Source: an uncultured Haloplasmataceae bacterium (lineage in GTDB: Bacteria; Bacillota_I; Bacilli_A; Haloplasmatales; Haloplasmataceae). From it: a DNA stretch of 22,126 bases. Below are positions 6,229-20,239 of this stretch, in pieces; position 1 is the first letter of the stretch, and every line of letters begins with the position of its first letter. The translations under genes were made by a program, and so were the position numbers. The notes beneath the pieces were generated by a model. The model made no database searches and was not told the DNA's origin. It saw only the letters and a list, made by a program, of their open reading frames with translations. Location: positions 1-22,126 of the forward strand of contig CALFRW010000102.1 in the NCBI GenBank assembly GCA_937919135.1, in the 5' to 3' direction.

Positions 6229-6247
6229 TAAATAGGATGTGAGACTT

Positions 6248-6874
6248 ATGTCACAAAATGCGCGTTTATTAATTAATATCATTATTGATAATAGTTCATC
6301 GATGAAAGGTGAAAAACTCCAAAAATTAAAGTCTGCACTGGGCTTATTTCATGATTCTATTTTAGCAAGCAAATTAGATTTTCTCTATTCAGTAATTGGC
6401 TATAAAGGATTTCAAGCTGCGATATTTAAATCGTATGATGATGAGGTTCTTAACCTAGATGATATTTATGAAGGTGGGTTAGCTTTATTAGGTAAGGCAG
6501 TGCTTTTAGGTGTAAAAACATTAGAAGAAAAATTAATTACCTTAAGAACCCAGGGCTGCAAATTATATAAACCTTGGTTTGTCATTTTAAGTGATGGCCA
6601 ATGTTATGGGGAGCTTGATAGTCAATTAGAAGCATTTAAAGATTTGTATAAAAAGCAAAGCATCACCTATTTTCCGTTTTTATTGTCAAATAATCCGCTT
6701 GATGAAAAGTTAACTGAATTTCAAAGCTTGAAACGGCCTTTAGTAATTGCTAATCTGCAGTATGATAAACTATTTAAATGGTTATTTGAAACGCTTAAAT
6801 TAAGGATTACGACGCAAGTTGAACAAACGATTAGATTAACAAGTACAGCATTTGATGGGTGGGTTATAAAATGA
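6248..6874 (+). CDS. von Willebrand factor type A (vWA) domain protein, TerY-like, cytoplasmic (no signal peptide). The ORF track starts it at 6239 (GTG); ATG 6248 with upstream RBS AGGATGTGAG is the likelier start.
   Basis: The MIDAS motif IIIDNSSSM (DxSxS) is near the N-terminus. Downstream hydrophobic strands and VILSDGQ (the T/D MIDAS region) are typical of a vWA Rossmann-like fold. Confidence 0.8.
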   Translation: MSQNARLLINIIIDNSSSMKGEKLQKLKSALGLFHDSILASKLDFLYSVIGYKGFQAAIFKSYDDEVLNLDDIYEGGLALLGKAVLLGVKTLEEKLITLRTQGCKLYKPWFVILSDGQCYGELDSQLEAFKDLYKKQSITYFPFLLSNNPLDEKLTEFQSLKRPLVIANLQYDKLFKWLFETLKLRITTQVEQTIRLTSTAFDGWVIK

Positions 6875-7824
6875 TATTAGAAAATTGGAAACAAACGGCA
6901 ATAGAGGTAACAGGAAAAGACCATTTAGCACTAAATGAAGTCTGTCAAGACCGTACTTATTATGTAAAAAATAATGGTGTCCATGTGATTGCTTTGGCAG
7001 ATGGTGCAGGCTCGCGAAAAAGGTCTGAAATTGGGGCCATGATTGTTACGAAAAAAATTAGTGAATTTCTAGTCAAAAATTTTTATAATGTCTACATGGG
7101 TTTAGAAAAAAGCGGAAAAACGGAAGCGGTATATCTTGAGGAGCTTAAAACATTTAAGAAATTCATCATTAATATCCTCGTAAATGAGTTAAATAATTAT
7201 CCTAATGTTCCGCTTAATGAATTATCCTCAACACTTTTGTTTTTTGCGATTAAAGATGATAAATATATCGTGGGTCATATCGGCGATGGTGTGATTGGTG
7301 GTGTTTTTGAAGAAAGTGAAACTCTTACGATTGAAACATTATCAGAACCCCATAATGGTGGGGCACCTAATATAACTTTTTTTGTTACTGATTCTGATGC
7401 TTATGAAAACTTAAGAATTGGTTCTGGTGAAGCGATTAATTTACGCGGTGTTATCCTAATGAGTGATGGTCCAGCTGAAGTGATGTATCATAAGGATTAT
7501 GGGCTTGACGAAAATGTGATTAAAATCTTTGAAAACTTTGAGCGTATCGTACCAGATAAGTATGAACAGATTCTGAAAACCTTTTTGGTTGAAAGAATAG
7601 CTAAATTTAGTAGTGACGATTTAAGTCTAAATATATTATTCTTAGAAAGTATATTAGCTAATAATCAGGAACAATATGATTTAAATTTATTAAAAACCAT
7701 AAAGGCCAAAACTCAGATTAGTTTTAAATCGCAATACTGTGTTCACATAGACTCTTCCATAAAACCCAATACTCGTGATTTTTTAACCCTTGATGAGCTT
7801 AGGAGATATCTAAAATGGCAATAG
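6871..7824 (+). CDS. PP2C-family Ser/Thr protein phosphatase-like protein. An alternative GTG start at 6859 overlaps the upstream gene by 16 nt.
   Basis: Metal-coordinating Asp/Gly motifs are spaced as in PP2C/SpoIIE-like phosphatases: VIALADGAGS, GHIGDGVIGG and ILMSDGPAEV. The gene sits next to a vWA gene and a kinase gene, the TerY-P triad context. Confidence 0.7.
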   Translation: MILENWKQTAIEVTGKDHLALNEVCQDRTYYVKNNGVHVIALADGAGSRKRSEIGAMIVTKKISEFLVKNFYNVYMGLEKSGKTEAVYLEELKTFKKFIINILVNELNNYPNVPLNELSSTLLFFAIKDDKYIVGHIGDGVIGGVFEESETLTIETLSEPHNGGAPNITFFVTDSDAYENLRIGSGEAINLRGVILMSDGPAEVMYHKDYGLDENVIKIFENFERIVPDKYEQILKTFLVERIAKFSSDDLSLNILFLESILANNQEQYDLNLLKTIKAKTQISFKSQYCVHIDSSIKPNTRDFLTLDELRRYLKWQ

Positions 7825-9140
7825 TCTTTATTGAAGAAAGTTGTTTTCTCGCCCCGGGGTTTATTAACCTTTTAGAAAATCTTGTTAATGACGGAAGTTT
7901 AATCTATGTGGAGCAGCAAATTGAACAGACAATCACAAATTTAAAAGCACAAAATCGGTTTAAGGAAGCCTATATAATTGAAGGTTATCTTGATATACTG
8001 GAATCACTTGCAGTCCTAAAAAAAATAACGACAAACTCTTACTTTGATTTTAGTCATTTTGATCGTGTAATTAAACAAAACCAAAATCTGAGTGTGTTAA
8101 TTCTAACCCAGAAAGAAAGTGTTTATAAAAATGTTTTGGATTTAAAAAACAAATATAAGCATGTTGCGATTGCCCGTTTTTCGCAAAATCTTATCTATTG
8201 GGATGATAATTCAAATGACGCTCTTGATGCCTTTTATCTAGATAATGATCAATATATCAATAAAGTTGATATCGAAAACTTGGATTATGTTTATTCACCT
8301 AAATATGGTCATCTCTGCTTAGATAAAAGAAAAACTTTTAAAGGTGGAGAAGGAATATTATATCCTACTTATAATAATCAACTTTGTAAATTGTATTTTA
8401 AAGATCATCAAACATATGTGAATTTTAAAAAGCTAAATGCAATGTTAGAAATTGATATTCATAATCCGTTTATTAATTGGCCGAAAGATATTCTCTTTTA
8501 TAAAAATGATTTTGTTGGTTATTTAATGGATGAAGTCAAAGCTGCAGAAAGTCTTGATGTCTTACGAATAAATGCTTTTAAAGGCTATAATATTTTTGAA
8601 AGGTATCTAATCAGTTATAATCTCTTATTAAATATTGATTACTTACATAAAAGAAATATTATTGTTGGTGATTTAAAGTTAGATAATATCCTAATTAAAT
8701 CACCCGAAGAAGTGTATTTAGTTGATTGTGGTAGTTGTCAAATCGGTGATTTTGCTTGTAATGTTTGTCACCCAGAATATACAAAAAGAGTCTATACTGC
8801 TGATGAATTAAAACAGAAGCTTAGAACAGTTGAAGATGAATATTATCCGATTAATAAAATTATTTTTGAAATTTTAATTGGTAAAAACCCCAATTATAAC
8901 CGTTATTCGGGAGAAGTTGATATTGAAAATAAAAATAATTTTTATTTTCCGCTGGATTTAAGTGAAATTAAAGAATATACAGGCGAATTATATATGTGGC
9001 GTGGTTTAAGTGAAAGAATGCGGACATTCTTCTACTATTATTTTAAAGAAAATAAAATTACTTATCTATCAGAATGGATAAATGAATTAGAATTATATAT
9101 TAAAAATGCTCAGGCAATGAAAATAAAAGGAGAGAGATAA
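7815..9140 (+). CDS. Ser/Thr protein kinase-like protein (441 aa). It has an N-terminal ~170-aa domain of unknown function and a C-terminal Hanks-type kinase domain.
   Basis: The Gly-rich loop and beta3 Lys region is FKGGEGILYPTYNNQLCKLYFK. The catalytic-loop equivalent is IIVGDLKLDNILI, with D, K and N conserved as in HRDLKxxN. The DFG equivalent is VDCGSCQIGDF, and a PE-containing segment reads CHPEYT. The start overlaps the PP2C stop by 10 nt. Confidence 0.75.
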   Translation: MAIVFIEESCFLAPGFINLLENLVNDGSLIYVEQQIEQTITNLKAQNRFKEAYIIEGYLDILESLAVLKKITTNSYFDFSHFDRVIKQNQNLSVLILTQKESVYKNVLDLKNKYKHVAIARFSQNLIYWDDNSNDALDAFYLDNDQYINKVDIENLDYVYSPKYGHLCLDKRKTFKGGEGILYPTYNNQLCKLYFKDHQTYVNFKKLNAMLEIDIHNPFINWPKDILFYKNDFVGYLMDEVKAAESLDVLRINAFKGYNIFERYLISYNLLLNIDYLHKRNIIVGDLKLDNILIKSPEEVYLVDCGSCQIGDFACNVCHPEYTKRVYTADELKQKLRTVEDEYYPINKIIFEILIGKNPNYNRYSGEVDIENKNNFYFPLDLSEIKEYTGELYMWRGLSERMRTFFYYYFKENKITYLSEWINELELYIKNAQAMKIKGER

Positions 9141-9141
9141 A

Positions 9142-9834
9142 ATGACTTATAATGACTTTAATTTTGATTTGTTTGGTGATTATAAACAACCAAATATTGA
9201 TAGTTCTTTAAAACTACCTTTATGTTTAGTATTAGATAATAGTGGCTCAATGTCGATTAGAACAAAATCGACAAGAGGCTCGATTGTCAAAATTGATGAA
9301 TTAAACTCCAATGTAGAAAAATTAATTAATTATATCAAAAATGATCCGAAAGCTAGTAAAATTTGTGATTTATGTATTATTACTTTTGGAGGTAGAGTTA
9401 ACCTTGTGACCGATTATAACTTAGTTGAAAATATTAGCCCCTTTAGATTAGTGGCAGGGGGTAATACCCCTTTAGGTGAAGCGGTTGGGCTTGCAATCGA
9501 CTTACTTAATAAAAGAAGAGATCATTATATTGAAAATGGGATTGAGCATTATAAACCAATTATGTTAATCATGAGTGATGGTGAGCCAACAGATAGTTAT
9601 ATCGAAAGTGCCAGAAGATGTAGTGAAAAGGTAAGTAGAAAAGAATTAAAAGTTTATCCTGTCGGGATTGGAACTGATTTTCGCGAAGATATTTTACAAG
9701 AATTTTCTCCATTAATAAATCCAAAACGAATTACTGATATGGCTGGCTTTGTAAGATTATTTGAGTTATTAAGTCGAAGTACAAGTAATCCAACGGATGA
9801 TTCAATTGATAAATGGTTTAATGAAGATATCTAG
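9142..9834 (+). CDS. vWA domain protein, TerY-like (second copy)
   Basis: RBS AAAGGAGAGAG precedes the ATG. MIDAS motif LCLVLDNSGSMS (DxSxS) is present, along with NTPLGEAV (the conserved Thr loop) and IMLIMSDGEPTD. Confidence 0.85.
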   Translation: MTYNDFNFDLFGDYKQPNIDSSLKLPLCLVLDNSGSMSIRTKSTRGSIVKIDELNSNVEKLINYIKNDPKASKICDLCIITFGGRVNLVTDYNLVENISPFRLVAGGNTPLGEAVGLAIDLLNKRRDHYIENGIEHYKPIMLIMSDGEPTDSYIESARRCSEKVSRKELKVYPVGIGTDFREDILQEFSPLINPKRITDMAGFVRLFELLSRSTSNPTDDSIDKWFNEDI

Positions 9835-9858
9835 AACCTGATTAAATCAGGTTTTTTC
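9835..9858 (+). terminator. Rho-independent terminator ending operon 1
   Basis: Stem AACCTGAT / ATCAGGTT with loop TAA, followed by TTTTTT. It begins immediately after the TAG at 9832-9834. Confidence 0.75.
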
Positions 9859-9863
9859 GATTG

Positions 9864-9892
9864 TTGACATTTGTTTTATTTTAAGAGATAAT
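9864..9892 (+). promoter_or_regulatory. Sigma-70-like promoter for operon 2: -35 TTGACA (9864-9869), 17-nt spacer, -10 GATAAT (9887-9892)
   Basis: Consensus -35 with a good -10 at canonical spacing. It lies between the terminator and the AGGAGG RBS (9915-9920) of the GTG start at 9926. Confidence 0.5.
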
Positions 9893-9925
9893 AGCAATAA
9901 GAAATGTGTTGTATAGGAGGATAAA

Positions 9926-10645
9926 GTGAAAGAAATTATCAAGTTTTCAGGTAATAAAGATGATTTAGTTTGGATTTATCCCAAGGCTAATATCAGTAAA
10001 GATGCAGAAGTGATTGTTGATAAAGATTATCAAGCAATTTTAGTGCGAAATGGTAAAATTATTCCTTATTTTCCCGGTGTAAATAAGGCGTTTAGTGAGA
10101 AAGTTTCTTTGTTTAATAAATATATCAATGATTGTACAATTTATTTTTTTAATAAGTCGAAAGATGTTAAATTTCATAAATGGGGTACTAAATATCCAAT
10201 TAGATATTTTGATAAACATTATCAAACTGAGCTTTCAATGCGGGCTCATGGCAAGTATAAAGTATATTTGGATAATCCAAGATTATTTATGAATAGTTTT
10301 AAACTTGATAGTAATATTCGCATTGAAAATGATATTAAAGCAATGGTTATTATAAAAATTACCGAAAAATTAGCGAAATTATTAAACTTAGGTAAATATA
10401 ACGCTTTAAGTATTAACGCTTATCTTAATGAGATTTCAACTATGATTCAAGATGAACTTAATCAGGATTTCGAAGAATGGGGATTTAGTCTTTTTAATTT
10501 AAGTTTTACAGAATTATCGCCGCTTGAAGTAAATGAAATCAAAAATGAATGTCCAAATTGTCAAGCTAAAGTTAATCCACAAATGAAGTTTTGTAGTAAT
10601 TGTGGGATGAGTTTAGTAGAAGTTGGTGATGTAGATGTTGTTTAA
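9926..10645 (+). CDS. SPFH/Band-7-like (COG4260 'virion core protein-like') N-terminal domain protein with a C-terminal zinc ribbon; GTG start
   Basis: The N-terminus FSGNKDDLVWIYPKANISKDAEVIVDKDYQAILVRNGKIIPYFPG resembles the characteristic start of SPFH-plus-Zn-ribbon proteins, which I recall as ...D.LVW.FP......I..GS.LIV...Q.AVFV.NG.I. The C-terminus CPNCQAKVNPQMKFCSNCGMSL is a CxxC...CxxC zinc ribbon. At 239 aa it is shorter than a full SPFH protein, so it may be a truncated or minimal version. Confidence 0.55.
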   Translation: MKEIIKFSGNKDDLVWIYPKANISKDAEVIVDKDYQAILVRNGKIIPYFPGVNKAFSEKVSLFNKYINDCTIYFFNKSKDVKFHKWGTKYPIRYFDKHYQTELSMRAHGKYKVYLDNPRLFMNSFKLDSNIRIENDIKAMVIIKITEKLAKLLNLGKYNALSINAYLNEISTMIQDELNQDFEEWGFSLFNLSFTELSPLEVNEIKNECPNCQAKVNPQMKFCSNCGMSLVEVGDVDVV

Positions 10646-10919
10646 TAAGTATAATGATAAACAAAAATTAATTTATAAAACTCTAAGCGAAATTGAATTA
10701 GCAATTAATGAAACGGAAATAAGAAAAAGGGTTAGTGCGGTAATTGATAAATTATATACCATTAAACCAAAAGCTAAAAATGATGGACAGTTAAAACAAC
10801 TTAATCATTATGTCAAAGAATTAAAAAGCGAATTAGTTAACCCAATTGAGTCAATTATTAATAATTATCTTGATAAAATTGATAGTATTTTAAATCAAAT
10901 TAAATATGAGGGTGAGTGA
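10635..10919 (+). CDS. Small (94 aa) predicted alpha-helical/coiled-coil protein of unknown function
   Basis: It overlaps the upstream gene by 11 nt and runs into the next start. It is charged and heptad-like throughout, with no recognisable motif. Confidence 0.6.
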   Translation: MLFNKYNDKQKLIYKTLSEIELAINETEIRKRVSAVIDKLYTIKPKAKNDGQLKQLNHYVKELKSELVNPIESIINNYLDKIDSILNQIKYEGE

Positions 10920-10921
10920 TA

Positions 10922-11494
10922 ATGATGTTTGGTAAAAAGCGAAAACAAAAAGCAAATGAAGAAAAAAACTTTCGTTTACATAATGAGATTTTACGAAAAT
11001 CACATGAACTAGAAAAATTATTTGCAAAATTAGCTGAAACAAAAGCACAAGGGAAAGCTGAAAAAAATGAAAATATGAAACAATTTATCGCTAATGAATA
11101 TATTCAAATCGAAAATAAAATTAAAATGAGTACAATTCAGTTAAAAGATTTACAAAAAACTTATATTTTAAATCTAAATATTATGAGTAAGGAAGAATTA
11201 TTAAAGACTTATAGTGTGATCGATAAGTATAAGATTGCCAGTAATAATGACTTAATAAGTATTGTGGAAAAAATAACCAATATTCAAAAAGATAAAATTG
11301 TTGAAGAAAAAGAACGTGAAGATATTGAAGAAGTATTTGTAGAAAGTATTGATAGTTACTCAGAAGAATTGGATAATCCAAGAGCAAGTGAACTAATAAA
11401 TGCTTGGGCTAAGGAAGTTACTCAAGAGGAATTTGAAAAAGAAAGTAACCCTGAAAATTTAGCGGTTGTAGCTGAAAGCAAAGGAGAGATGTAA
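10922..11494 (+). CDS. ESCRT-III superfamily (Snf7/CHMP-like) protein, paralogue 1. The ORF track starts it at 10916 (GTG); ATG 10922 or 10925, giving MMFGKK, is the likelier start.
   Basis: It has a Snf7-type N-terminus (MFGKKRKQK) and a basic helix-1 (ILRKSHELEKLFAKLAETKAQGKAEKNENMKQFIANEY) with the Snf7-like KKG.NK..A pattern. It then has a long amphipathic helical hairpin and an acidic C-terminal half (EEKEREDIEEVFVESIDSYSEELD). The composition is the basic N-half and acidic C-half typical of ESCRT-III. Confidence 0.7.
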   Translation: MMFGKKRKQKANEEKNFRLHNEILRKSHELEKLFAKLAETKAQGKAEKNENMKQFIANEYIQIENKIKMSTIQLKDLQKTYILNLNIMSKEELLKTYSVIDKYKIASNNDLISIVEKITNIQKDKIVEEKEREDIEEVFVESIDSYSEELDNPRASELINAWAKEVTQEEFEKESNPENLAVVAESKGEM

Positions 11495-12070
11495 ATGTTT
11501 AAATCAAGAGCAGAAAAAGAGCTGGAACGTAAATTAAAAGTAAAACGTACCTTATCAGGTATGAATAAATTTATCTCGCAAATTGAAATGAAAAAGAAAA
11601 AATTAATTGAACAGGCTAGCTTAGCTAAATTAAAAGGAATTGATTCTCAATATAATCTAGCTGTTCAAGGTTTAAAAATTGCTTTAGCGCAACAAAAGCG
11701 TGTTGAAACAATGTTACTTAATTTTGAGATTACGACACAGTTAAAAGATATCTCACAAATGACAAAAGGTTTTTTTGAATCGATGAGTATCTTATCTAAT
11801 GAATTATCAGGTGGTACAAAACAAAAAGATTTTGTGAAAGTGCAACAACAATTTGAAAAAGCAATGATGAAATCACAAATGCAAACTGAAAGATTAGAAG
11901 CATTTTTAGAGTCAACTGAGTCCTTATTTGAAAACTTAAGTGTTGATTCTAGTTCTGTAGATGACCAAGAAATTGAAAAATTAATTGAAAATCAAGCAAG
12001 TAATATTGATAATGATTTAGATCTAGAAATTGAAGAGAAACTTAAGAGTTTAGACACTAAATCATTATAG
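11495..12070 (+). CDS. ESCRT-III superfamily (Vps2/CHMP2-like) protein, paralogue 2, with a C-terminal MIM1-like motif
   Basis: The core KGIDSQYNLAVQGLKIALAQQKRVETMLLNFEITTQLKDISQMTKGFFESMSILSNEL aligns residue-pattern-wise with the CHMP2/Vps2 helices alpha2-alpha4 (..AKQGQMDAVRIMAKDLVRTRRYV...MAQAMKGVTKAMGTMNRQL). The C-terminus DLDLEIEEKLKSLDTKSL matches the MIM1 consensus D-x-x-L-x-x-(R/K)-L-x-x-L, as in CHMP2 ...DADLEERLKNLRR. RBS AAAGGAGAG precedes the ATG, which abuts the upstream stop. Confidence 0.8.
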   Translation: MFKSRAEKELERKLKVKRTLSGMNKFISQIEMKKKKLIEQASLAKLKGIDSQYNLAVQGLKIALAQQKRVETMLLNFEITTQLKDISQMTKGFFESMSILSNELSGGTKQKDFVKVQQQFEKAMMKSQMQTERLEAFLESTESLFENLSVDSSSVDDQEIEKLIENQASNIDNDLDLEIEEKLKSLDTKSL

Positions 12071-12085
12071 AAAAGGAGTGGGATT

Positions 12086-13201
12086 ATGGAGAATCAACAA
12101 TTTTTACTTGATGCATTTAATACGTATTATAATAATGGTATGACCGCAAAACAAAAAGCCAATATTCCCCTCGCCAAAAAAAATTTTAAGAAGGCTTGTG
12201 AAGTATTGTTAAAACTAGCAAAAGTGTCATCAGGTGAATTAAAACGATCTCGTTTAGATAAAGCCACTCGTTTAATGGAGTACATAGATTCTTTAAAAGA
12301 ACCAGATAAATCACGAATAAGCACAAATCAAAATAAAAAAGCAGATAGTACCGAAACCTCTTGGGAAGCAGTTAGCATTCCAAATATTTGTTTTGATGAT
12401 ATCGCTGGTTTAGATGATGTTAAAGAAGCAGTTAGAATAAGAATTATCCTACCTCGAAAATACCCTGAAATATATAATAAGTACAAGAAGAAGGCTGGCG
12501 GAGGCGTATTAATGTATGGTCTACCTGGTACTGGTAAAACCATGATTGCTAAAGCGATTGCTAGAGAAATTCAAGCAAAGTTTTTTTCGGTAAAAAGCAG
12601 TGATATTGTAAGTAAATGGTTTGGTGAGGCAGAAAAGAATGTTAGAAACTTATTCGAAACAGCAAGAAAGGAAAGTAATGCAGTTATCTTTTTTGATGAA
12701 TTTGAAGCATTAGGTGCTAAACGAAGCAGTAATTCAAGTGTTATGTCAAGACTAATTCCAGAATTATTGGCACAAATTCAAGGTTTTAATGAAACAGATG
12801 CCAATATTATGATCCTTGCTGCTACTAACCGACCGTGGGATTTAGATAGTGCCTTTTTAAGACCGGGACGTTTTGATGAAAAACTCTATGTCCCTTTACC
12901 TGATAATGATGCTAGGAAGTTTATTATTACCAAAGCTTTAGAAGGATTACCACTTGATAATAATATTGAAATAGAAAAATTAGTTGCATATACTGATGGA
13001 TTTAATGCTGCTGATGTCGTAGAGTTTTGTGAGCGTTTAAAAGATGGACCAATTAGACGTACGATTGAAAATGGTGGAAAAAATATTGAAAATATCAATC
13101 TTGATGATGTCAATTTTGTCCGGAATAATGTTAAAAGTTCAGTTAATCCTCAGGATATAACTGCACTTCAGAAGTGGAAAACGGAATTCGCTAAAAATTA
13201 G
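12086..13201 (+). CDS. Vps4-like AAA+ ATPase of the meiotic clade (Vps4/katanin/spastin), with an N-terminal MIT-like domain
   Basis: RBS AAAAGGAGTGGG precedes the ATG. The N-terminal three-helix region FLLDAFNTYYNNG...KACEVLLKLAK...KRSRLDKATRLMEYIDSLKE parallels the Vps4 MIT helix ...[24 protein letters not shown]. The ATPase carries Walker A GLPGTGKT and Walker B IFFDEFEAL, sensor-1 ATNRPWDLD and Arg-finger/SRH LRPGRFDEKLYVPLPD. The C-terminal helix VKSSVNPQDITALQKWKTEF matches the Vps4 family C-terminal helix (LKSTRPSVS.EDLEKYEEWTKEF). Confidence 0.9.
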   Translation: MENQQFLLDAFNTYYNNGMTAKQKANIPLAKKNFKKACEVLLKLAKVSSGELKRSRLDKATRLMEYIDSLKEPDKSRISTNQNKKADSTETSWEAVSIPNICFDDIAGLDDVKEAVRIRIILPRKYPEIYNKYKKKAGGGVLMYGLPGTGKTMIAKAIAREIQAKFFSVKSSDIVSKWFGEAEKNVRNLFETARKESNAVIFFDEFEALGAKRSSNSSVMSRLIPELLAQIQGFNETDANIMILAATNRPWDLDSAFLRPGRFDEKLYVPLPDNDARKFIITKALEGLPLDNNIEIEKLVAYTDGFNAADVVEFCERLKDGPIRRTIENGGKNIENINLDDVNFVRNNVKSSVNPQDITALQKWKTEFAKN

Positions 13202-13210
13202 AGGTGGATC

Positions 13211-14104
13211 ATGAAAGAAATAGTAAAGAAGTGTCCTTATTGTGGTAATATCCTAGATGAAAAAAGTGTTTTATATAAAGGATATTATGTTTGTTCAAGT
13301 TGTGCAAATACCATTAATGACAGTAAAAATGTTGAGTTAATTAGGAGATTCAGTAATTATATTCGAAATTTAGAATTTCAAAGAGCAGATAGTTTACGAA
13401 AAGAAATGCTTGATGATGCTGATTTTGATGTTAATGAGTTACAACTGTTTACTTTTTATTCAGCAATTTTGCATCTGTTTTTAACACGTGATCCCAGTAA
13501 TATTATTAAGTTTTTAAATGATTCTACCGCAACTGATATTGGTGTTGTAATTGAAGTGTTGAATTTTTTAACTAGTATTTCTGTATATGTAGAAAAATTA
13601 GGTAAATATATTCATGATTATGTTGATATGCAAGAAAAGTACTTGTCACAGCTTAATAATTATGAGTTTAATGTTGCTTATATTGAGTTAAAGAAAAAAT
13701 ATTTTAAATCAATTTTAAATAAATCCAGTTTTATTATGCAAAGTTATAAACAAGGAAAGATGTCTTTACAAGAAATATTGGAATTAATTCATAAAGAAGA
13801 TCCTGGAAATATTGCCGCACTATATGCGATTTTTGATGATGTTGCGACTAATTCCCACCCGGTTGAATTAATTAATAGTTATCTTAAAACATGCGATTAT
13901 GCTTTAGAACTCTACTATGAGAAATCAAAACGCAAAATGAGTGATAATTATAAAGTTTATTATAAGAAATCGCTCGCATTACGGAGAAAATATAATCTGC
14001 ACGCTAATAAAAATTACTTGTGGCAGAAAAAACTCACTAATAATTTATTCTGGGGAGTTATAATAATTATTATGATCATAATTGGGATAATGTTATTGAA
14101 ATAG
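13211..14104 (+). CDS. Hypothetical protein with an N-terminal zinc ribbon, a helical middle domain and a C-terminal TM anchor
   Basis: RBS AGAGGTGGA precedes the ATG. The zinc ribbon is CPYCGN...(16 aa)...CSSCAN. The C-terminal hydrophobic segment is LFWGVIIIIMIIIGIMLL, followed by K. Confidence 0.75.
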   Translation: MKEIVKKCPYCGNILDEKSVLYKGYYVCSSCANTINDSKNVELIRRFSNYIRNLEFQRADSLRKEMLDDADFDVNELQLFTFYSAILHLFLTRDPSNIIKFLNDSTATDIGVVIEVLNFLTSISVYVEKLGKYIHDYVDMQEKYLSQLNNYEFNVAYIELKKKYFKSILNKSSFIMQSYKQGKMSLQEILELIHKEDPGNIAALYAIFDDVATNSHPVELINSYLKTCDYALELYYEKSKRKMSDNYKVYYKKSLALRRKYNLHANKNYLWQKKLTNNLFWGVIIIIMIIIGIMLLK

Positions 14105-14114
14105 GATGGATATT

Positions 14115-15389
14115 ATGACTAACGAACCTTTATTTAACAAAGGGACAATTTTAAATAACACTATAAAGATTATCGACTATATTGGTTCAGGTGGTCAAGG
14201 TGAAGTGTATCTAGTTAAGTATTATGATAAGCAATATGCTTTAAAATGGTATTATGCTCATATCGTAAATCAAAACCTTAAAAGAGTTATTATAAATTTA
14301 ATATCTAAAGGAGCCCCAAATCAGCATTTTCTTTGGCCGATTAAACTTGTTGAAGAAAATAATCAATTTGGTTATTTAATGGAACTTCGACCGCCAAATT
14401 ACCGGAGTTTAAATGAATGGGTAAAATTAGAGTTTGATATGAATTTATCAACAATAGCCTTAGCGTGTTTTAAATTAACCAATGCTTTTAATAAGCTTCA
14501 TGCTATCGGATTAAGTTATAAAGATATTTCACTAGACAATATCTTTGTCGACCCCAAACGTGGTGATATTTTAATTTGCGATAATGATAATATTACCGCA
14601 AATGGTATTAATGTAGGTGGCCTCTTGGGTACCCCTAAATTTATGGCACCAGAGCTAGTTATGGGGTCAACAATTCCTAATACGGAATCGGATCAGTTTT
14701 CACTCGCTGTTTTATTATTTTATATTTTATTAGTTTCGCATCCGTTTGAGGGAAGGTTAGAAGCAAATATTACGTGCTTTAATGATTTAAGCGCTAAAAT
14801 GCTTTATGGAACGGATGCGGTATTTATTTATGATGAAGCGAATCCTTCTAACCGACCGGTTTTAGGAATTCACAATAATGCGATTAACTTATGGCCAATA
14901 TATCCTAAATACATTAGGGATTTGTTTCATAAAACATTTACCATCGGTGTAAGGAATCCTTTAAAAAGGACAAGAGAAAGTGAGTGGCGAACTGCTTTCT
15001 TAAAGTTATATAATTCACTGTTTAAATGTTCTAATTGTGGGCAAGAAAATATTTATGAGCTAAAGAAATATCAAAGCCAGGGCAAGTTAGACCCTTGCAT
15101 CTATTGTAAACAAGACTTCCAAATTCCACCTCGGATTGGAATTAAAGATAATATTATTGTTTTAAGTGAGGAAAAAGGTTTATTTGTCTGTCATATAAAT
15201 CCTAATGAACCAGCTAATTTAACTTTAGTTGGTAGGATTAATAAAATAAGTTCAGACTATATAATAACTAATGTTTCGAAACTAAATTGGAAAATTAACG
15301 GTCAAAAAATTTTGCCACAAATGTCAAAAACTTTAATAAACGGTGATATAATTGATTTTGGTTTAACAACTGGAGAAATCAGATTTTAG
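14115..15389 (+). CDS. Hanks-type Ser/Thr protein kinase with C-terminal zinc-ribbon and FHA-like modules. The ORF track starts it at 14106; ATG 14115 has the better RBS, AGGATGGA.
   Basis: The Gly-rich loop GSGGQGEVYLV and beta3 YALKW are present. The catalytic loop is YKDISLDNIFV and the Mg-binding loop is ICDNDNI. The activation-segment end GTPKFMAPELV is a canonical APE motif. The zinc ribbon is CSNCGQ...(17 aa)...CIYCKQ. The C-terminal ~85 aa (...VGRINKISSDYIITN...NWKINGQKI....LINGDIIDFG) resemble the FHA GR...D..I......S..H..I...VNG..I....L..GD.I.FG core. Confidence 0.8.
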   Translation: MTNEPLFNKGTILNNTIKIIDYIGSGGQGEVYLVKYYDKQYALKWYYAHIVNQNLKRVIINLISKGAPNQHFLWPIKLVEENNQFGYLMELRPPNYRSLNEWVKLEFDMNLSTIALACFKLTNAFNKLHAIGLSYKDISLDNIFVDPKRGDILICDNDNITANGINVGGLLGTPKFMAPELVMGSTIPNTESDQFSLAVLLFYILLVSHPFEGRLEANITCFNDLSAKMLYGTDAVFIYDEANPSNRPVLGIHNNAINLWPIYPKYIRDLFHKTFTIGVRNPLKRTRESEWRTAFLKLYNSLFKCSNCGQENIYELKKYQSQGKLDPCIYCKQDFQIPPRIGIKDNIIVLSEEKGLFVCHINPNEPANLTLVGRINKISSDYIITNVSKLNWKINGQKILPQMSKTLINGDIIDFGLTTGEIRF

Positions 15390-15406
15390 ATGAAAGAGGA
15401 GAAGAA

Positions 15407-16099
15407 ATGGGATTAAGAAAGTTAGGAGCTGAAAAAATTTCAGCACGTCAGTTGGATTTTATCTTTGTTTTAGACGTATCTGGTTCGATGCATGGGGAAA
15501 AGATTGCTGCTCTTAATTATGCGATTAAAGAAGCAATACCAGCAATGCAAGAAGCAGCACATAAAAATGTAAATGCGGAAATTATGGTGCGGGTACTAAC
15601 ATTTTCAGATGATGTAAATTGGTTTATAGAACGTGAACCAATAAAAGACTTTCTATGGCATGATATTAAACCGCAAGGACTGTCAAATTTAGGTAGAGCA
15701 TTTACTGAGCTTGCTAGAATATTAGATGAATCATTAATGCCTGATCGAGGTCTTCCTCCAGTAATTGTCTTAATCACTGATGGTATGCCGACGGATGATT
15801 ATAAAGAAGGTTTAGCTATGCTTTTGGCAACAAAATGGGGACGTGCTGCAGTTAGGCTTGCAATCGCCTTAGAAAACGATGTTGAAAAAGCTGTATTAGA
15901 TGATTTTATCGATAATAACAGAATAAAACCAATTAGGGTTGAAAATGCTAATCAATTAGTGAAATATATGAGATTTGTCTCGACAGTAGTATTAAATACA
16001 GTTTCATCGGTTAAAGATAATGAGAAGTTGATTTTTGATTTTGATTTCGACCTTCCTGAAGATGATGAAACTACTACTGATGTTTATGATGTATTTTAG
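15407..16099 (+). CDS. vWA domain protein, TerY-like (third copy)
   Basis: RBS AAAGAGGAGAAG precedes the ATG. MIDAS motif FIFVLDVSGSMHG (DxSxS) is present, with LSNLGRAF (Thr/Ser loop) and VIVLITDGMPTDD. An acidic C-terminal tail reads DFDFDLPEDDETTTDVYDVF. Confidence 0.9.
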   Translation: MGLRKLGAEKISARQLDFIFVLDVSGSMHGEKIAALNYAIKEAIPAMQEAAHKNVNAEIMVRVLTFSDDVNWFIEREPIKDFLWHDIKPQGLSNLGRAFTELARILDESLMPDRGLPPVIVLITDGMPTDDYKEGLAMLLATKWGRAAVRLAIALENDVEKAVLDDFIDNNRIKPIRVENANQLVKYMRFVSTVVLNTVSSVKDNEKLIFDFDFDLPEDDETTTDVYDVF

Positions 16100-16128
16100 G
16101 TATTAAAATATAGTTATAGGAGTTAAAT

Positions 16129-17586
16129 ATGGAAACTATAAGGATAATTGATATTTTAAAACAAGTTGATATTGATTTATTGTTAAAGCAAAAATATTTA
16201 AAGGCTGTACTAGCTGACCTTTTGTATGAATATGAAAATGAACGAAAAATATTAAATATGGTTAATAATAGTACTAATGTGGTAAAAAGATTAGCAGATA
16301 GTAATAATAAACTAATTGAATTAGAAAATCTTAATCAGGAATTATTAAGCTTTGGTTTAAATGAAGCAGCAATTAAATGGGCATTAGATATTTGGGCAGG
16401 AGTACTAAATATTAACCAAATAGATCGTAATATTCGTCATGATGCAAACTTATCATTAAGTTTAGGTGGGGCATTTACCATCGCCTTATTTAATAATGAT
16501 TATGTCTATGTATGGGGAAATAATCGTTGGGGTCAACTAGGAGTAGGTAACAAAATTGATTACATTAAACCTCAAGATATTACCGCTTCATTTAATCTTG
16601 GATTAAATGAAAAGGTTAACGCAGTAGCTGCCTCCTTTCGTTCATCATATTTGTTAACTGATCAAGGTAGATTATTTGCTTGGGGTAATAATGAGTATGG
16701 GCAACTTGGTGATGAAACAATGATTAATAGTAATCTACCAATGGATATTACAAATCGGTTTAAGTTAGCTACTTCAGAAAAAATTATTAAAATAAGCGCT
16801 GGCGGTTTCCATGCACTTTTATTAACTAATCAAAATCGAATTTTTACTTGGGGTAACAACCAATATGGCCAGTTAGGTGATGGAACTTATATAAATAAAA
16901 GTAAACCGATAAATATTACCCCTAATTGTTTATTAAAAAATGGCGAATTTATTCAAGAGCTTTATGCCGGATTAGGACATTCGCTGTTTATCACAACAGT
17001 AGGGAGAATCTTTACTTGGGGTAATAATAAATATGGCCAGTTAGGTGTAGAGAATCTTATTAAAGAAAATGTTCCCCTCGATATAACGCAAAATATCCCG
17101 TTCATTAACGGTGAAAGTATTGGAGATTGTTCAGTGGGCTCTCTACATTCATTAATTGCTACCAGTCAAGGGAGATTATATACTTTTGGTAATAATGAAG
17201 ATGGTCAATTAGGTGATAATACACTTAATAACAGTAATATTCCTGTTGAGATATCGCGATACTTTAATCCACAAGAAAGAATTATTAAAGTAAGCGCAGG
17301 AAGGAATTTTTCAATCGCTTTAACAAGTTTAGGTCATGTTTATACTTGGGGTAATAATAAAAAAGGACAATTAGGCATTAATGATTTTATCACTAATAGT
17401 AAAGGTCCAATAGATATCACAAATAAACTAGTCCAAAATGAAAATGAAACGATTGTTGATATTTTTACCGGTTCAAGTTCTAATCATGCATATGCGGTTA
17501 GTTCACAAAATAATATCTATGCTTGGGGAAATAATGAATATGGGCAACTTGGTGAAAGTAGTAGTTTAGATATATATGTAAAATAA
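16129..17586 (+). CDS. RCC1-repeat (regulator of chromosome condensation-like) beta-propeller protein with an N-terminal ~110-aa helical domain
   Basis: RBS TAGGAGTT precedes the ATG. The RCC1 signature WGNNxYGQLG recurs seven or more times: WGNNRWGQLGVG, WGNNEYGQLGDE, WGNNQYGQLGDG, WGNNKYGQLGVE, FGNNEDGQLGDN, WGNNKKGQLGIN and WGNNEYGQLGES. These repeats are spaced about 50-55 aa apart. Confidence 0.9.
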   Translation: METIRIIDILKQVDIDLLLKQKYLKAVLADLLYEYENERKILNMVNNSTNVVKRLADSNNKLIELENLNQELLSFGLNEAAIKWALDIWAGVLNINQIDRNIRHDANLSLSLGGAFTIALFNNDYVYVWGNNRWGQLGVGNKIDYIKPQDITASFNLGLNEKVNAVAASFRSSYLLTDQGRLFAWGNNEYGQLGDETMINSNLPMDITNRFKLATSEKIIKISAGGFHALLLTNQNRIFTWGNNQYGQLGDGTYINKSKPINITPNCLLKNGEFIQELYAGLGHSLFITTVGRIFTWGNNKYGQLGVENLIKENVPLDITQNIPFINGESIGDCSVGSLHSLIATSQGRLYTFGNNEDGQLGDNTLNNSNIPVEISRYFNPQERIIKVSAGRNFSIALTSLGHVYTWGNNKKGQLGINDFITNSKGPIDITNKLVQNENETIVDIFTGSSSNHAYAVSSQNNIYAWGNNEYGQLGESSSLDIYVK

Positions 17587-17590
17587 TTTT

Positions 17591-17626
17591 ATCCTCCTAT
17601 CATTTATTTGGTAGGAGGATTTAAAA
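17591..17626 (+). terminator. Stem-loop after the RCC1 gene (putative terminator of operon 2; weak U-tract)
   Basis: ATCCTCCTA ...12-nt loop... TAGGAGGAT forms a perfect 9-bp stem 5 nt after the TAA. The following TTAAAAT is a poor T-run, so termination efficiency is uncertain. Confidence 0.4.
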
Positions 17627-17735
17627 TAGAGGCTTCAATCTTAAGACATAAATTTTTATCGATTCTTATTTCTCTGCTAAATATAAATTAACCTTTATGC
17701 CATTTTACAGCAATTAAATAATAACCAATTACTTA

Positions 17736-17857: not shown

Positions 17858-20197
17858 ATGCCTAAAAAGTTGATTAAGGCGATGCTTTTAACATTGACAA
17901 TTGTCTTTAGTTCGATTTTTATTTATTGTTCACAAGCTCAGGCAGCTAATTTAAAATTAGCTGAATTATATGGTAATTTTGATTTAGAGTCAAGTGAACT
18001 TACTAGTATAATTATCGAGCTAGAAGATAAATCAATTGTAGAGGCAAAACATACGGGTAGTTTTCAAAATGAAAAACTATTAGAGGTAAAACGTAATTAT
18101 ATTATTGATGAGGTTACAGAATATGGAGAATGTTTTACGATTATTCAAGAATATGATTACTTATTTTCAGGATTTGCGGTAGAATTACCCGCAAATGAAA
18201 TTACTGATATTTTATCAATTCCTGGGATAAAAGCTGTATATCCCAATGTCAATTATTACGTTCCAGAATTTACAACTCTGTTAGAGGAATTTGAACCTAT
18301 GATGACAAGTAGTAATCCATTTATTGGCACACCTGAAGCGTGGAGCATGGGATATACCGGAGAAGGGATGATTGTTGCTGTTATTGATAGTGGTGTTGAT
18401 TATACTCACCCTGAACTTCAACATGCATTTGGCGAATATAAAGGCTATGACTTCTTCGATATGGATTCAGATCCAATGGATGGTGGTTACCATGGAACCC
18501 ATGTTACAGGAACTATCGTTGCTGAAAGTTTTGGGATTGCTCCTGATGCGCAAATTTTAGCTTACCGAGTGCTAGGGCCGAATGGTGGAACTTCAGCACA
18601 AGTTATTGCTGGTATTGAGCAAGCGGTAATTGATGGTGCTGATGTTATGAATTTATCATTAGGAAATGATTTAAATGATCCTGATTATGCTACTAGTATT
18701 GCTCTTGACTGGGCGATGGCTGAAGGGGTAGTAGCTGTTACATCAAGTGGAAATAGTGGTCCTTATGATTGGAGTGTTGGTTCTCCAGGTGCCTCACGGG
18801 AAGCAATTTCTGTGGGTTCAACAGCATTACCATATATCAATGTTGACTTCAATACTTCAGATATTGTTCCATATCCTAGTGCTAAAGTAATGGGATATAA
18901 TAATTATGAAGATTTATTTGCTTTAAGCGGTAATACTTATGAATATGAATTTATTGGACTAGGTTATCCTGAGGACTATGAAGGATTAGATATGGAAGGT
19001 AAAATTGCGTTAATAATCCGTGGTGATTTAACTTTTGTTGATAAAGTACAAATCGCTAAAGATCATGGCGCAGTTGCCGCAATTATTTTCAACAATGCCG
19101 CTGGTGAAATAAATACCAGTGGAGAGTTCTCATTACCTACCTTCCAACTCGATTATACTGATGGTTATAATATGTATGTTGTATCAGTACTATACAGTAA
19201 TCTAATTGAAATTAATCTTTATGAGTTTGGTGAAATGATTTCTGATTTCTCAAGCCGTGGGCCAGCTTATGGAACATGGATGATTAAACCAGATGTTGTT
19301 GCACCTGGAGATTGGATATTAAGTACCTATCCTGGTGGATATTATGCTTATGCTGGTGGTACTAGTATGGCATCACCTCATGTAGCAGCCGCAAGTGCTT
19401 TAATCCTCCAAGCTCACCCAGAATACACGCCTGATGATGTTAAAAATGTTCTAATGAATACAGCTGAGAAAATAACCGATCCATTAACAGGTGAAGATTA
19501 TCCTCATAATGTTCAAGGTGCTGGAAGTATTAGAATTGCTGAAGCTATTAAGGCTAAAACAATTGTCACACCAGGTAGTTATTCATTTGGTGTATTTGAT
19601 AAAACTAAAGGAAAACAAGTAGAAGGTAAGCACTTTGAAATTAAAAACTTTTCTAATGAAAGAAGAAAATACAGTTTTGATGTCCAATTTAATGGCAATC
19701 CAGACGGCATTAAAGTAACTCATAGTAATAATACAAATATTAAAGCTCATAGTTCTCATAGTATTCGTGTTAATGTTCAAGTAGATACGAGAAAATTAGC
19801 ACCAGGACAATATGAAGGTACAATAACAGTTAGTGATAAGAATGAAACGATTGTTGTACCAATCATCATCTTTGTTCATGAACCAAATTATCCACGCGTA
19901 AGCTTTGCTGGTGTTCAAAATAATTATGATGGTACTTATTTAGCTTACGGATACCTTCTAAATGGAGCAGAATATGTTGAAATTGCATTCTTTAATTTTA
20001 ATGAATTTGATGGAACAATTGGGGAATATTTGGATTCACCATTTTATGCTTATGATGTTCCAGCAGGATATTATATAGAAGAGTGGGATGGTACAATACA
20101 AGGGGAAAAACTTCCTCCTGGACTATACGTTATTGCTGTTTATGCTGAATATAAAGGTCTCAGCACAACTACTGCTACTTTATTTGAAATAGTTTAA
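17858..20197 (+). CDS. Secreted subtilisin-like serine protease (peptidase S8) with an N-terminal inhibitor/propeptide region, an inserted PA (protease-associated) domain and C-terminal beta-rich domains
   Basis: RBS AGCGGGGGAAAT precedes the ATG. The signal peptide is MPKKLIKAMLLTLTIVFSSIFIYCSQAQA. The catalytic triad motifs are VAVIDSGVDYTHPEL (Asp), HGTHVTGTI (His) and GGTSMASPHVAAA (Ser), with the oxyanion Asn in GNSGPY. The PA-domain-like insert is GKIALIIRGDLTFVDKVQIAKDHGAVAAIIFNN. No LPXTG or TM anchor is present. Confidence 0.92.
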   Translation: MPKKLIKAMLLTLTIVFSSIFIYCSQAQAANLKLAELYGNFDLESSELTSIIIELEDKSIVEAKHTGSFQNEKLLEVKRNYIIDEVTEYGECFTIIQEYDYLFSGFAVELPANEITDILSIPGIKAVYPNVNYYVPEFTTLLEEFEPMMTSSNPFIGTPEAWSMGYTGEGMIVAVIDSGVDYTHPELQHAFGEYKGYDFFDMDSDPMDGGYHGTHVTGTIVAESFGIAPDAQILAYRVLGPNGGTSAQVIAGIEQAVIDGADVMNLSLGNDLNDPDYATSIALDWAMAEGVVAVTSSGNSGPYDWSVGSPGASREAISVGSTALPYINVDFNTSDIVPYPSAKVMGYNNYEDLFALSGNTYEYEFIGLGYPEDYEGLDMEGKIALIIRGDLTFVDKVQIAKDHGAVAAIIFNNAAGEINTSGEFSLPTFQLDYTDGYNMYVVSVLYSNLIEINLYEFGEMISDFSSRGPAYGTWMIKPDVVAPGDWILSTYPGGYYAYAGGTSMASPHVAAASALILQAHPEYTPDDVKNVLMNTAEKITDPLTGEDYPHNVQGAGSIRIAEAIKAKTIVTPGSYSFGVFDKTKGKQVEGKHFEIKNFSNERRKYSFDVQFNGNPDGIKVTHSNNTNIKAHSSHSIRVNVQVDTRKLAPGQYEGTITVSDKNETIVVPIIIFVHEPNYPRVSFAGVQNNYDGTYLAYGYLLNGAEYVEIAFFNFNEFDGTIGEYLDSPFYAYDVPAGYYIEEWDGTIQGEKLPPGLYVIAVYAEYKGLSTTTATLFEIV

Positions 20198-20207
20198 ATA
20201 ATAAATT

Positions 20208-20239
20208 GGGTAGGTTAGAAATTAACTTACCCTTTTTTT
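20208..20239 (+). terminator. Rho-independent terminator after the protease gene
   Basis: GGGTAGGTTA-GAAAT-TAACTTACCC is a 10-bp stem with one G-U pair, followed by TTTTTTT. Confidence 0.75.

Follow-up and report, generated by a model that had tools for sequence, protein, structure and literature searches.

A candidate ESCRT-III/Vps4-like membrane-remodelling module with TerY-P-like partner genes in an uncultured Haloplasmataceae bacterium

The archaeal ESCRT loci, which carry kinase, phosphatase, FHA and SPFH-zinc-ribbon partners (Makarova et al. 2024, PMC10936438), are among the closest described systems to the locus reported here, a run of nine genes at positions 9926-17586 of a 22,126-nt stretch of DNA from an uncultured Haloplasmataceae bacterium (GenBank assembly GCA_937919135.1, contig CALFRW010000102.1, forward strand), the whole of which is called the window below. 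In bacteria, the SPFH protein YdjI of B. subtilis (Band_7_1 plus zinc ribbon) localises PspA (PMC11237479; PMC10936438), and PspA/Snf7 dyads with a double AAA ATPase have been described, in the published order GntR, double AAA, PspA, as have Vps4-like ATPases at loci where a TPR-6TM gene replaces snf7 (PMC11237479). According to the same PSP study, Vps4-like ATPases have been transferred from archaea into bacteria (PMC11237479). A 2025 review considered a Vps4-like ATPase to be seemingly absent from bacteria, which leaves open by what means ESCRT-III polymers are taken apart there (PMC7619361). The TerY-P triad (Anantharaman et al. 2012), finally, consists of a von Willebrand factor A (vWA) protein, a PP2C phosphatase and a Ser/Thr kinase bearing a zinc ribbon at its C-terminus; Gao et al. 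2020 validated its role in defence, as summarised in PMC11090510, and ATPase cassettes flanked by TerY-like vWA genes are known, e.g. in the CoCoNuT type III-A extensions (PMC11090510).

A first-pass annotation, made from the letters of the window, had proposed that the nine genes form a composite operon and a candidate phospho-regulated membrane-remodelling or conflict system. The analysis described here leads, with reasonable but by no means full confidence, to the view that the region represents the second of the transcription units in a block of ~15 genes conserved in Haloplasmataceae, and that its heart is a five-gene ESCRT-III/Vps4-like membrane-remodelling module under phospho-control, for which a role in conflict or in the response to membrane damage is the most likely. 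The five genes encode, in order, an SPFH-zinc-ribbon protein, a small helical protein, the ESCRT-III-like pair SnfA and SnfB, and an AAA ATPase with a MIT-like N-terminal domain.

Conservation of this core was assessed by a scan of one genome per species (185,579 species genomes), in which 147 SnfB relatives were confirmed, a patchy distribution, and the loci of 80 of them were retrieved; a census by open reading frame (ORF) and hidden Markov model (HMM) covered 93 loci with SnfB, or 84 after removal of redundancy. The SPFH-zinc-ribbon gene was present in 83 of the 93 loci and the AAA ATPase gene, adjoining SnfB, in 91. The order was constant: SPFH-zinc-ribbon, a helical protein of 105-150 aa, sometimes a 119-aa protein, a ~200-aa protein, SnfB and AAA. 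Far from being scattered, the genes for the SPFH-zinc-ribbon protein, for both ~200-aa helical proteins and for the AAA ATPase lie side by side and in the same order across the 84 non-redundant loci, and the five-gene core as a whole spans these loci in Clostridia and Bacilli. The very same locus was met again in nine contigs of metagenomic or metagenome-assembled genome (MAG) origin, and the nearest relatives, at 79-81% identity, are those of Inordinaticella fortuita 4B (L013) and of two Haloplasmataceae MAGs; the remaining loci come mostly from gut Clostridia (Christensenellales, 'Coproplasma' and Lachnospiraceae). The genes for the zinc-ribbon TM protein (TM, transmembrane), kinase, vWA, PP2C and RCC1 proteins were confined to the window and three Haloplasmataceae relatives (L013-L015). 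The nine-gene cassette initially proposed is therefore kept broadly only in its five core genes, whereas the other four are retained in the four Haloplasmataceae genomes.

All features given below lie on the + strand. The first core gene (9926-10645) encodes an SPFH protein of the YdjI type without a TM segment, in which Band_7_1 of Pfam was matched at E 2e-13, in agreement with the initial SPFH call, and in which a C-terminal zinc ribbon was matched by zinc-ribbon families at E ~1e-5; it is predicted to act as both scaffold and recruiter close to the membrane. The second (10635-10919) encodes a small helical protein of 94 aa, for which no family was matched in Pfam or NCBIfam. The same position is filled by a gene for 105-150 aa in nearly all loci, and, in Clostridia, about half of the proteins encoded there have a TM helix at the N-terminus.

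SnfB (11495-12070; 191 aa), which carries a MIM1-like helix (DLEIEEKLKSLD) at its C-terminus, after an acidic linker, is assigned to a divergent branch of the Snf7/ESCRT-III family, the Snf7 signal being seen at the level of the family and not in the window's own protein, for which only a weak Vipp1 match was found (E 0.013). A word-indexed search gave 40 relatives of SnfB, whose alignment seeded a full HMM search, and the resulting family comprises 504 representative clusters at E <= 1e-3. When 24 aligned members were scanned singly, 13 of them matched Pfam Snf7 (best E 6.8e-5), and one relative, P0127, which matches the SnfB family profile at E 1e-29, scored above the gathering score of Snf7 (PF03357; 28.9 vs 27.3 bits). 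Eukaryotic ESCRT-III proteins bind the MIT domain of Vps4 through MIM1, the consensus of which is (D/E)xxLxxRLxxL(K/R). Past the acidic linker of SnfB, a C-terminal motif D176-xx-I179-[DE]-xx-L183-xx-L186-[KR]187 is conserved over 145 members of the family, with the spacing of the MIM1 consensus, and is regarded as a putative MIT-binding motif.

SnfA (10916-11494; 192 aa) is an ESCRT-III-like protein that starts with the basic sequence MFGKKRKQK and is probably a remote paralogue of SnfB, as judged by profile comparison. Both proteins have a basic N-terminus and an acidic C-terminal half, and when the deep alignments of the two families were compared with hhalign they aligned end to end (probability 81%, P 1.3e-5, 160 columns). 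Only deep alignments gave this signal, as hhalign was negative for the single SnfA sequence against family profile A1 and for shallow alignments. A homologue search from SnfA alone returned three close relatives only, and the ~200-aa proteins in the SnfA position of other genomes were also without direct family match. The AlphaFold2 (AF2) model of SnfA shows a helical hairpin (residues 3-48 and 52-87) with a pLDDT score (predicted value of the local distance difference test) of 77-88, followed by two short helices, a disordered acidic stretch and a C-terminal helix, and a Foldseek search with this model against the PDB gave no significant match. The AF2 model of SnfB (pLDDT 64.7, predicted template modelling score 0.31) showed no hairpin and was kept out of the fold search because of its low confidence. 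The ESCRT-III call of the first-pass annotation was thus borne out at the family level, by the 13 of 24 Snf7 matches and by P0127 above the cutoff, but not by any direct match of the window's two proteins.

The fifth core gene (12086-13201) encodes an ATPase with a MIT-like N-terminal domain, a single classical AAA domain (Pfam AAA, E 3e-41) and a putative C-terminal helix of the Vps4 type; the protein retains intact Walker motifs A and B (GLPGTGKT, IFFDEFE), a KWFG pore loop and arginine fingers (RPGRFD). Its best NCBIfam family is CdvC, to which residues 1-368 align over positions 1-368 of the 370 of the model; the score is 219 bits, far under the equivalog cutoff of 650, and the protein is therefore not considered a CdvC orthologue. 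Pfam Vps4_C matched residues 336-368 at E 0.0023, with 18.3 bits against a gathering score of 21.3, i.e. below threshold. When a profile of 35 N-terminal domains was used, the best PDB match was the MIT domain of Sulfolobus CdvC (2w2u; E 0.094), and the single ATPase sequence matched the MIT domain at E 0.88. This MIT-like domain is common to 74 of the 74 core-adjacent AAA proteins, whether these are of the 370-aa, 500-aa or 700-aa (two-AAA) form. The ATPase is Vps4/CdvC-like in architecture and gene context. The earlier Vps4 call draws on the full-length CdvC alignment, the weak Vps4_C match, the constant MIT-like domain and the SnfB neighbourhood, but is weakened by the low CdvC score and the marginal MIT assignment.

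The ATPase also matched the IetA models of PADLOC at E 1e-37. The locus resembles IetAS in having a classical AAA ATPase with such strong matches and an S8 subtilase gene downstream in the window; it differs in that NCBIfam IteA was matched with only 112 bits against 510, and in that the subtilase is a secreted PA-domain protease, forms a separate unit and is not conserved. An IetAS pair made of the ATPase and the subtilase was accordingly ruled out, as the S8 gene lies 271 nt off and is absent from L013-L015. The same matches bear on a broader alternative, which is considered improbable, namely that the ~190-aa proteins are generic coiled-coil adaptors and that the ATPase is an unfoldase or chaperone activating or degrading partners in an IetAS-like manner, with no membrane remodelling. 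Trypsin-like proteases are indeed frequent neighbours of the core, and what speaks for ESCRT-III in the window's own proteins is indirect evidence, with AF2 models of low confidence. Against generic adaptors stand the recurrent Snf7 matches with one member above the gathering score, the C-terminal motif with MIM1 spacing and the constant SPFH partner, and against an IetAS-like unfoldase stand the IteA score and the secreted, distant and non-conserved S8 protease.

When compared with archaeal ESCRT/Cdv loci, the core shares the adjacency of one or more Snf7-family (here Snf7-like) genes and a gene for a MIT-AAA (here MIT-like) ATPase, a C-terminal motif suited to MIT binding, which is putative here, and the presence of a Ser/Thr kinase, a phosphatase, a possibly FHA-like domain and an SPFH protein with zinc ribbon as partners. 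It differs in its bacterial hosts (Mollicutes and Clostridia), in the absence of CdvA and of any ESCRT-I or ESCRT-II winged-helix component, in Snf7 proteins too divergent for a direct Pfam match, in an ATPase that is far under the CdvC cutoff and whose AAA domain is as near Cdc48 D2 as Vps4, and in its other partners, which are vWA and RCC1 proteins in Haloplasmataceae and TIR, trypsin-like protease, BrxL and NERD proteins elsewhere. A machine for Cdv-like division or vesicle budding, acquired from archaea for membrane scission, would account for the full-length alignment of the ATPase to crenarchaeal CdvC and for the partners shared with archaeal ESCRT loci, and would agree with the reported archaea-to-bacteria transfers. 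It is nonetheless held to be very improbable: the CdvC score is well short of the equivalog cutoff, neither CdvA nor an ESCRT-II-like winged-helix gene is present, and the core occurs sporadically in Clostridia and Bacilli together with TIR, protease and nuclease genes, which would be unexpected for a core division machine.

The partners of the core outside Haloplasmataceae were of a different kind, and in Clostridia the place of the upstream vWA, PP2C and kinase genes is taken by genes for TIR-TPR proteins, trypsin-like proteases and BrxL-like ATPases. A TIR-domain protein was encoded in the co-directional run of the core in 57 of the 84 non-redundant loci, usually as a TIR-TPR or TIR-LRR protein of 600-1500 aa; 31 of the loci had a trypsin-like protease in the run, and 7 had a BrxL-like Lon ATPase. 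Large TIR-TPR/TIR-LRR examples are at L028 10605-14168, L017 5858-7894 and 14742-18713, L024 13516-17952 and L048 11786-15607, and in some Clostridia loci the TIR protein gene is inserted between SnfB and AAA. In distant members, a Snf7-like domain stands at the N-terminus of fusions with FtsK/SpoIIIE, with a RuvB-like AAA domain plus winged helix and NERD, or with a RuvB-like AAA domain plus a TnsA-like endonuclease (P0085, P0088, P0095, P0100, P0113, P0156 and P0187; L093 8001-10403). In L093-L095 the NERD fusion is encoded beside a trypsin-like protease and an SPFH/Snf7/AAA core, and in one case fusion and protease are directly upstream of a core composed of SPFH, a 344-aa protein, a 199-aa protein and AAA.

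A few other arrangements were observed among these loci. A minimal variant without SPFH (L007 8487-11640) consists of an FtsK/SpoIIIE-family protein, the N-terminus of which matches the SnfB profile, SnfB and a 356-aa AAA protein, and lies beside the sporulation gene spoIVA. In a subgroup of the Clostridia loci, a gene of the Ppx/GppA family (actin-like ATPase fold, 298 aa) lies between SnfB and AAA (L052 10620-11516, also L053 and L055). Proteins with DUF6273 recur downstream of the core (L011, L031 and L093).

The accessory genes are swapped wholesale between lineages, with TIR-TPR, protease and BrxL genes in one and TerY-P-type and RCC1 genes in another, which is conflict-like behaviour. 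Because of this exchange, of the effector-type fusions of Snf7-like domains and of the patchy distribution, a conflict role fits the data better than housekeeping. The main rival to it is nevertheless a housekeeping envelope-stress system of the PspA/YdjI type, in which the SPFH-zinc-ribbon protein would recruit the ESCRT-III-like proteins so as to stabilise damaged membrane and the kinases would sense envelope stress, without any phage conflict. Such a system is attractive for a wall-less host, the family Haloplasmataceae being placed within the Mollicutes, and it would agree with the likeness of the SPFH protein to the PspA-localising YdjI, with the housekeeping genes flanking the Clostridia loci and with the lack of copies on mobile elements in IMG/VR, PLSDB and INPHARED. 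It is rated unlikely, if less so than the two alternatives above, given the patchy distribution, the wholesale exchange of TIR-TPR, trypsin-like protease and BrxL genes for TerY-P-type genes, and the fusion of Snf7-like domains to nucleases beside the same core, features that are typical of conflict systems rather than of stress regulons, and given also the absence of a PspA_IM30 or TPM (YdjH-like) component.

A parallel with the B. subtilis ydjFGHI operon, drawn at the outset, bears on the same question. As in PspA-SPFH operons of this type, a Band_7_1 SPFH gene without TM segment and with C-terminal zinc ribbon lies beside a gene for a putative member of the ESCRT-III superfamily, and a membrane-anchored zinc-ribbon protein is encoded in the operon; some Clostridia variants of the core also have a two-domain AAA ATPase, as do the PspA/Snf7 double-AAA dyads. 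In contrast to these systems, the filament proteins are Snf7-like and not PspA_IM30, there is no YdjH with a TPM domain (neither PspA_IM30 nor TPM was matched by any of the nine proteins in Pfam or NCBIfam), the core regularly includes an AAA ATPase with a MIT-like domain (AAA in 91 of 93 SnfB loci), and gene order and partners differ from those of the dyad of GntR, double AAA and PspA. The parallel is apt for the SPFH-zinc-ribbon protein.

Several observations weigh against an ESCRT-III/Vps4-like conflict module. With respect to the proteins, neither SnfA nor SnfB of the window gave a direct Snf7 or PspA match in searches of Pfam, NCBIfam and PDB sequences, and the family profiles A1 and A2 likewise gave no significant match (Pfam, NCBIfam, PDB phmmer/hmmsearch). 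The AF2 models of the two proteins have low overall confidence (pLDDT ~65), and no hairpin is seen in that of SnfB. For the ATPase, a MIT domain is assigned only marginally (E 0.094); its AAA domain comes no less near Cdc48 D2 (~200 bits, PDB) than Vps4, and no Vps4 entry was among its top 60 PDB matches. With respect to context, the genes flanking the Clostridia loci are housekeeping genes (short-chain dehydrogenase, DXP synthase, NlpC/P60), and searches of IMG/VR viral contigs, PLSDB plasmids and INPHARED phages turned up no relatives, so that a phage- or plasmid-borne origin is unsupported. PADLOC has no model for the core proteins, and its TerY model was matched only at E ~0.004. The arm of kinase, vWA and RCC1 genes is conserved within one family only (four genomes), so that common descent may account for part of its linkage to the core. 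A location in defence islands, which the first-pass annotation had suggested looking for, was not borne out, as the flanks of the Clostridia loci are metabolic and the immune-type domains lie inside the module itself. The phage-triggered defence role, one of those that it had put forward, retains plausibility, on the strength of the immune-type partners, the fusions and the patchiness, but finds no support in those flanks.

The analysis shows the gene order and its conservation and identifies the domains, and it also shows the MIM1-like motif and the immune-type partners in other lineages; from these we infer the following scheme for polymerisation, MIT-MIM binding, phosphorylation and its trigger, and phenotype. 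The YdjI-type SPFH-zinc-ribbon protein, being devoid of a TM segment, would dock at the inner face of the membrane and, together with the small helical protein, would nucleate a co-polymer of SnfA and SnfB, by analogy with YdjI-PspA and Snf7-Vps4. The MIT-like domain of the ATPase would bind the C-terminal MIM1-like helix of SnfB, and subunits would be threaded through the KWFG pore, leading to remodelling or recycling of the polymer. In Haloplasmataceae the core is surrounded by parts of a TerY-P-type switch (two kinases, one PP2C, or two in relatives, and three vWA proteins) and by the zinc-ribbon TM and RCC1 proteins, and the switch parts would gate assembly of the polymer by reversible phosphorylation of putative targets on a presumed trigger. 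The most likely outcome would be an anti-phage or abortive-infection conflict response or a response to membrane damage, rather than a housekeeping function; the polymer may protect the membrane, kill the cell or sequester effectors.

A bolder extension of this scheme is offered only tentatively, as appreciably less likely than the module itself. Bacteria would possess a genuine ESCRT-III/Vps4 immune machine, made of a Snf7-type co-polymer, a MIT-AAA disassemblase and an SPFH nucleator, which would repair or shed membrane damaged in the course of infection, or would hold Snf7-tagged effectors (NERD/TnsA nucleases, FtsK, TIR) in filaments for release by the ATPase; the switch would be provided by TIR-TPR sensors in Clostridia and by TerY-P in Haloplasmataceae. 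If true, this machine would correspond, in prokaryotes, to the ESCRT-mediated repair of membranes in the cell-death immunity of eukaryotes. The recurrence of the module beside TIR, protease, nuclease and TerY-P components suggests that ESCRT-type remodelling is tied to prokaryotic immunity, a link of which no description was found in the full-text literature. Neither was the module of SPFH, two Snf7 proteins and a MIT-AAA ATPase, or its association with TIR or TerY-P partners, found described there (subscription-only works being outside reach). The initial statement that the combination matches no named system therefore holds for the set of core and arm as a whole, but not for the arm, which has the domain make-up of the TerY-P triad. 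As Snf7-like proteins with a MIM1-like tail occur here in bacteria together with a MIT-like AAA ATPase and an SPFH protein, the question of how bacterial ESCRT-III polymers are disassembled becomes directly testable. The closest relative, Inordinaticella fortuita 4B, is a named strain that may be culturable and offers a practical entry point.

Downstream of the core, the arm of the window starts with a gene (13211-14104) for a tail-anchored protein of 297 aa, with an N-terminal zinc ribbon (CPYC...CSSC; weak zinc-ribbon matches), a helical middle part and a C-terminal TM helix predicted at residues 274-292. It is followed by Kin2 (14106-15389), a Ser/Thr kinase (Pkinase, E 5e-17, confirming the kinase call) in which the catalytic domain is followed by a zinc ribbon (CSNC...CIYC) and, at the C-terminus, by a beta-rich domain of ~87 aa. 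For this last domain FHA was the sole Pfam match, below threshold (E 0.02; 15.8 bits vs a gathering score of 20.7), and when three orthologues of Kin2 were scanned one gave E 0.15 and two gave no match. As the score is sub-threshold and the canonical FHA positions (GR, SxxH, NG) are not conserved among the four Kin2 orthologues, an FHA kinase is not established, and the phosphopeptide-binding FHA module originally proposed is not upheld; the domain may be FHA-like. The next gene (15407-16099) encodes a TerY-like vWA protein (Pfam VWA, E 5e-9; PADLOC TerY, only E 0.004) whose metal ion-dependent adhesion site (MIDAS) motif DxSxS is intact (DVSGS), as had been stated. The last gene of the unit (16129-17586) encodes a helical N-terminal domain of ~105 aa followed by a seven-blade RCC1 beta-propeller, and the earlier RCC1 assignment was confirmed (seven repeats, E 3e-73).

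The conserved block does not begin at 9926, where the system had been supposed to start, but extends upstream through vWA-PP2C-kinase-vWA, 3-TM and Ig-like repeat genes. In the four genomes the order is Ig-like repeat, 3-TM, vWA, PP2C, kinase, vWA, a gap of 90-237 nt and the nine genes. In the window, the upstream TerY-P-like unit (6239-9834) is complete and comprises genes for a vWA protein (6239-6874), a PP2C phosphatase (6859-7824), a kinase (Kin1, 7815-9140), which has an N-terminal domain of ~230 aa, and a second vWA protein (9142-9834), with junctions of a 16-nt overlap, a 10-nt overlap and a 1-nt gap. The Pfam matches were PP2C_2 at E 5e-37, Pkinase at E 1e-9 and VWA at E 3e-5 and 5e-9. 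Over the whole window this makes two Ser/Thr kinases and one PP2C, together with three vWA proteins that carry DxSxS motifs. A PP2C gene was found between Kin2 and its vWA gene in L013 (13936-14715) and L015 (13986-14843), and was lacking in the window and in L014, which suggests a recent loss of one phosphatase.

In common with TerY-P, this arm has vWA proteins with MIDAS, a PP2C, a kinase with C-terminal zinc ribbon and tightly overlapping genes, and here, too, an ATPase cassette lies between vWA genes, in the manner of the CoCoNuT type III-A extensions. Unlike TerY-P, the triad is duplicated and split around the ESCRT-like core, the downstream triad of the window is without PP2C, and Kin2 has an extra beta-rich, possibly FHA-like domain. 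PADLOC TerY was matched at E 0.004-0.005 by two vWA proteins, the third and the PP2C gave no match, and the kinases matched the models for mad6 and PD-T4-6; none of the PADLOC models for the kinase or phosphatase of TerY-P was matched. Because these matches are unconvincing, the signalling arm is described as TerY-P-like by its predicted architecture and not as a demonstrated member of the validated system. The claim that zinc-ribbon, kinase, vWA and RCC1 genes belong to one nine-gene system holds in so far as they are linked in four Haloplasmataceae genomes, but they make up a lineage-specific arm and not part of the broad core.

At the head of the block, a gene at 146-4450 encodes a secreted Ig-like repeat protein of 1434 aa with a predicted C-terminal TM anchor, in which one Bact_surface_Ig-like domain was detected (E 4e-22) together with many repeats of ~85 aa bearing the recurring motif (E/K)(I/V)GNHxLxIxGxxGY. 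Its stop codon overlaps the start of the next gene (4450-6228), which encodes a 592-aa protein with three predicted N-terminal TM helices and without family match. Homologues of the pair occupy the same position in L013-L015, with truncation to 177 aa in L015. The pair is a possible extracellular sensor and a presumptive member of the system.

The layout of the region was also verified. The nine ORFs were confirmed on the + strand at 9926-17586, with junctions, in order, of -11, -4, 0, +15, +9, +1, +17 and +29 nt; the overlaps or gaps under 20 nt initially reported are therefore correct for all junctions but the last. Co-directionality is uninformative on its own, as every one of the 17 long ORFs of the window, which has ~30% G+C, is on the + strand. 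A terminator-like hairpin followed by a U-run (9833-9855; free energy, dG, -10.1 kcal/mol, z -3.7) which the first-pass annotation had not mentioned, lies directly 3' of the stop codon of the upstream vWA gene, and would divide the two transcription units, perhaps leakily. The promoter previously placed at 9864-9892 was found as a sigma-70-like TTGACA-17-GATAAT match at 11 of 12 positions within a 91-nt intergenic gap, and is followed by a Shine-Dalgarno sequence (AGGAGG, 9916-9921) and a GTG start at 9926. As promoter-like matches in this AT-rich region were no commoner than in shuffled sequence (85 observed vs 100.6 expected), the hexamers alone are weak evidence; the site gains weight from its position inside the sole sizeable intergenic gap, just past the hairpin, and is no more than suggestive of a promoter.

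At the 3' end, the hairpin first given as 17591-17626 is real and maps to about 17587-17627, a strong stem-loop with a poor U-tail (dG -19.2 kcal/mol, z -4.45). This 3' boundary is correct, as the genes past RCC1 differ among the four Haloplasmataceae loci. After a gap of 271 nt, the window encodes the secreted S8 subtilase (17858-20232 region), which has I9 inhibitor and PA domains and is placed outside the system because it forms a separate unit and is absent from L013-L015. A canonical intrinsic terminator (20208-20232) follows the subtilase gene, and beyond it lies a gene for a MatE transporter.

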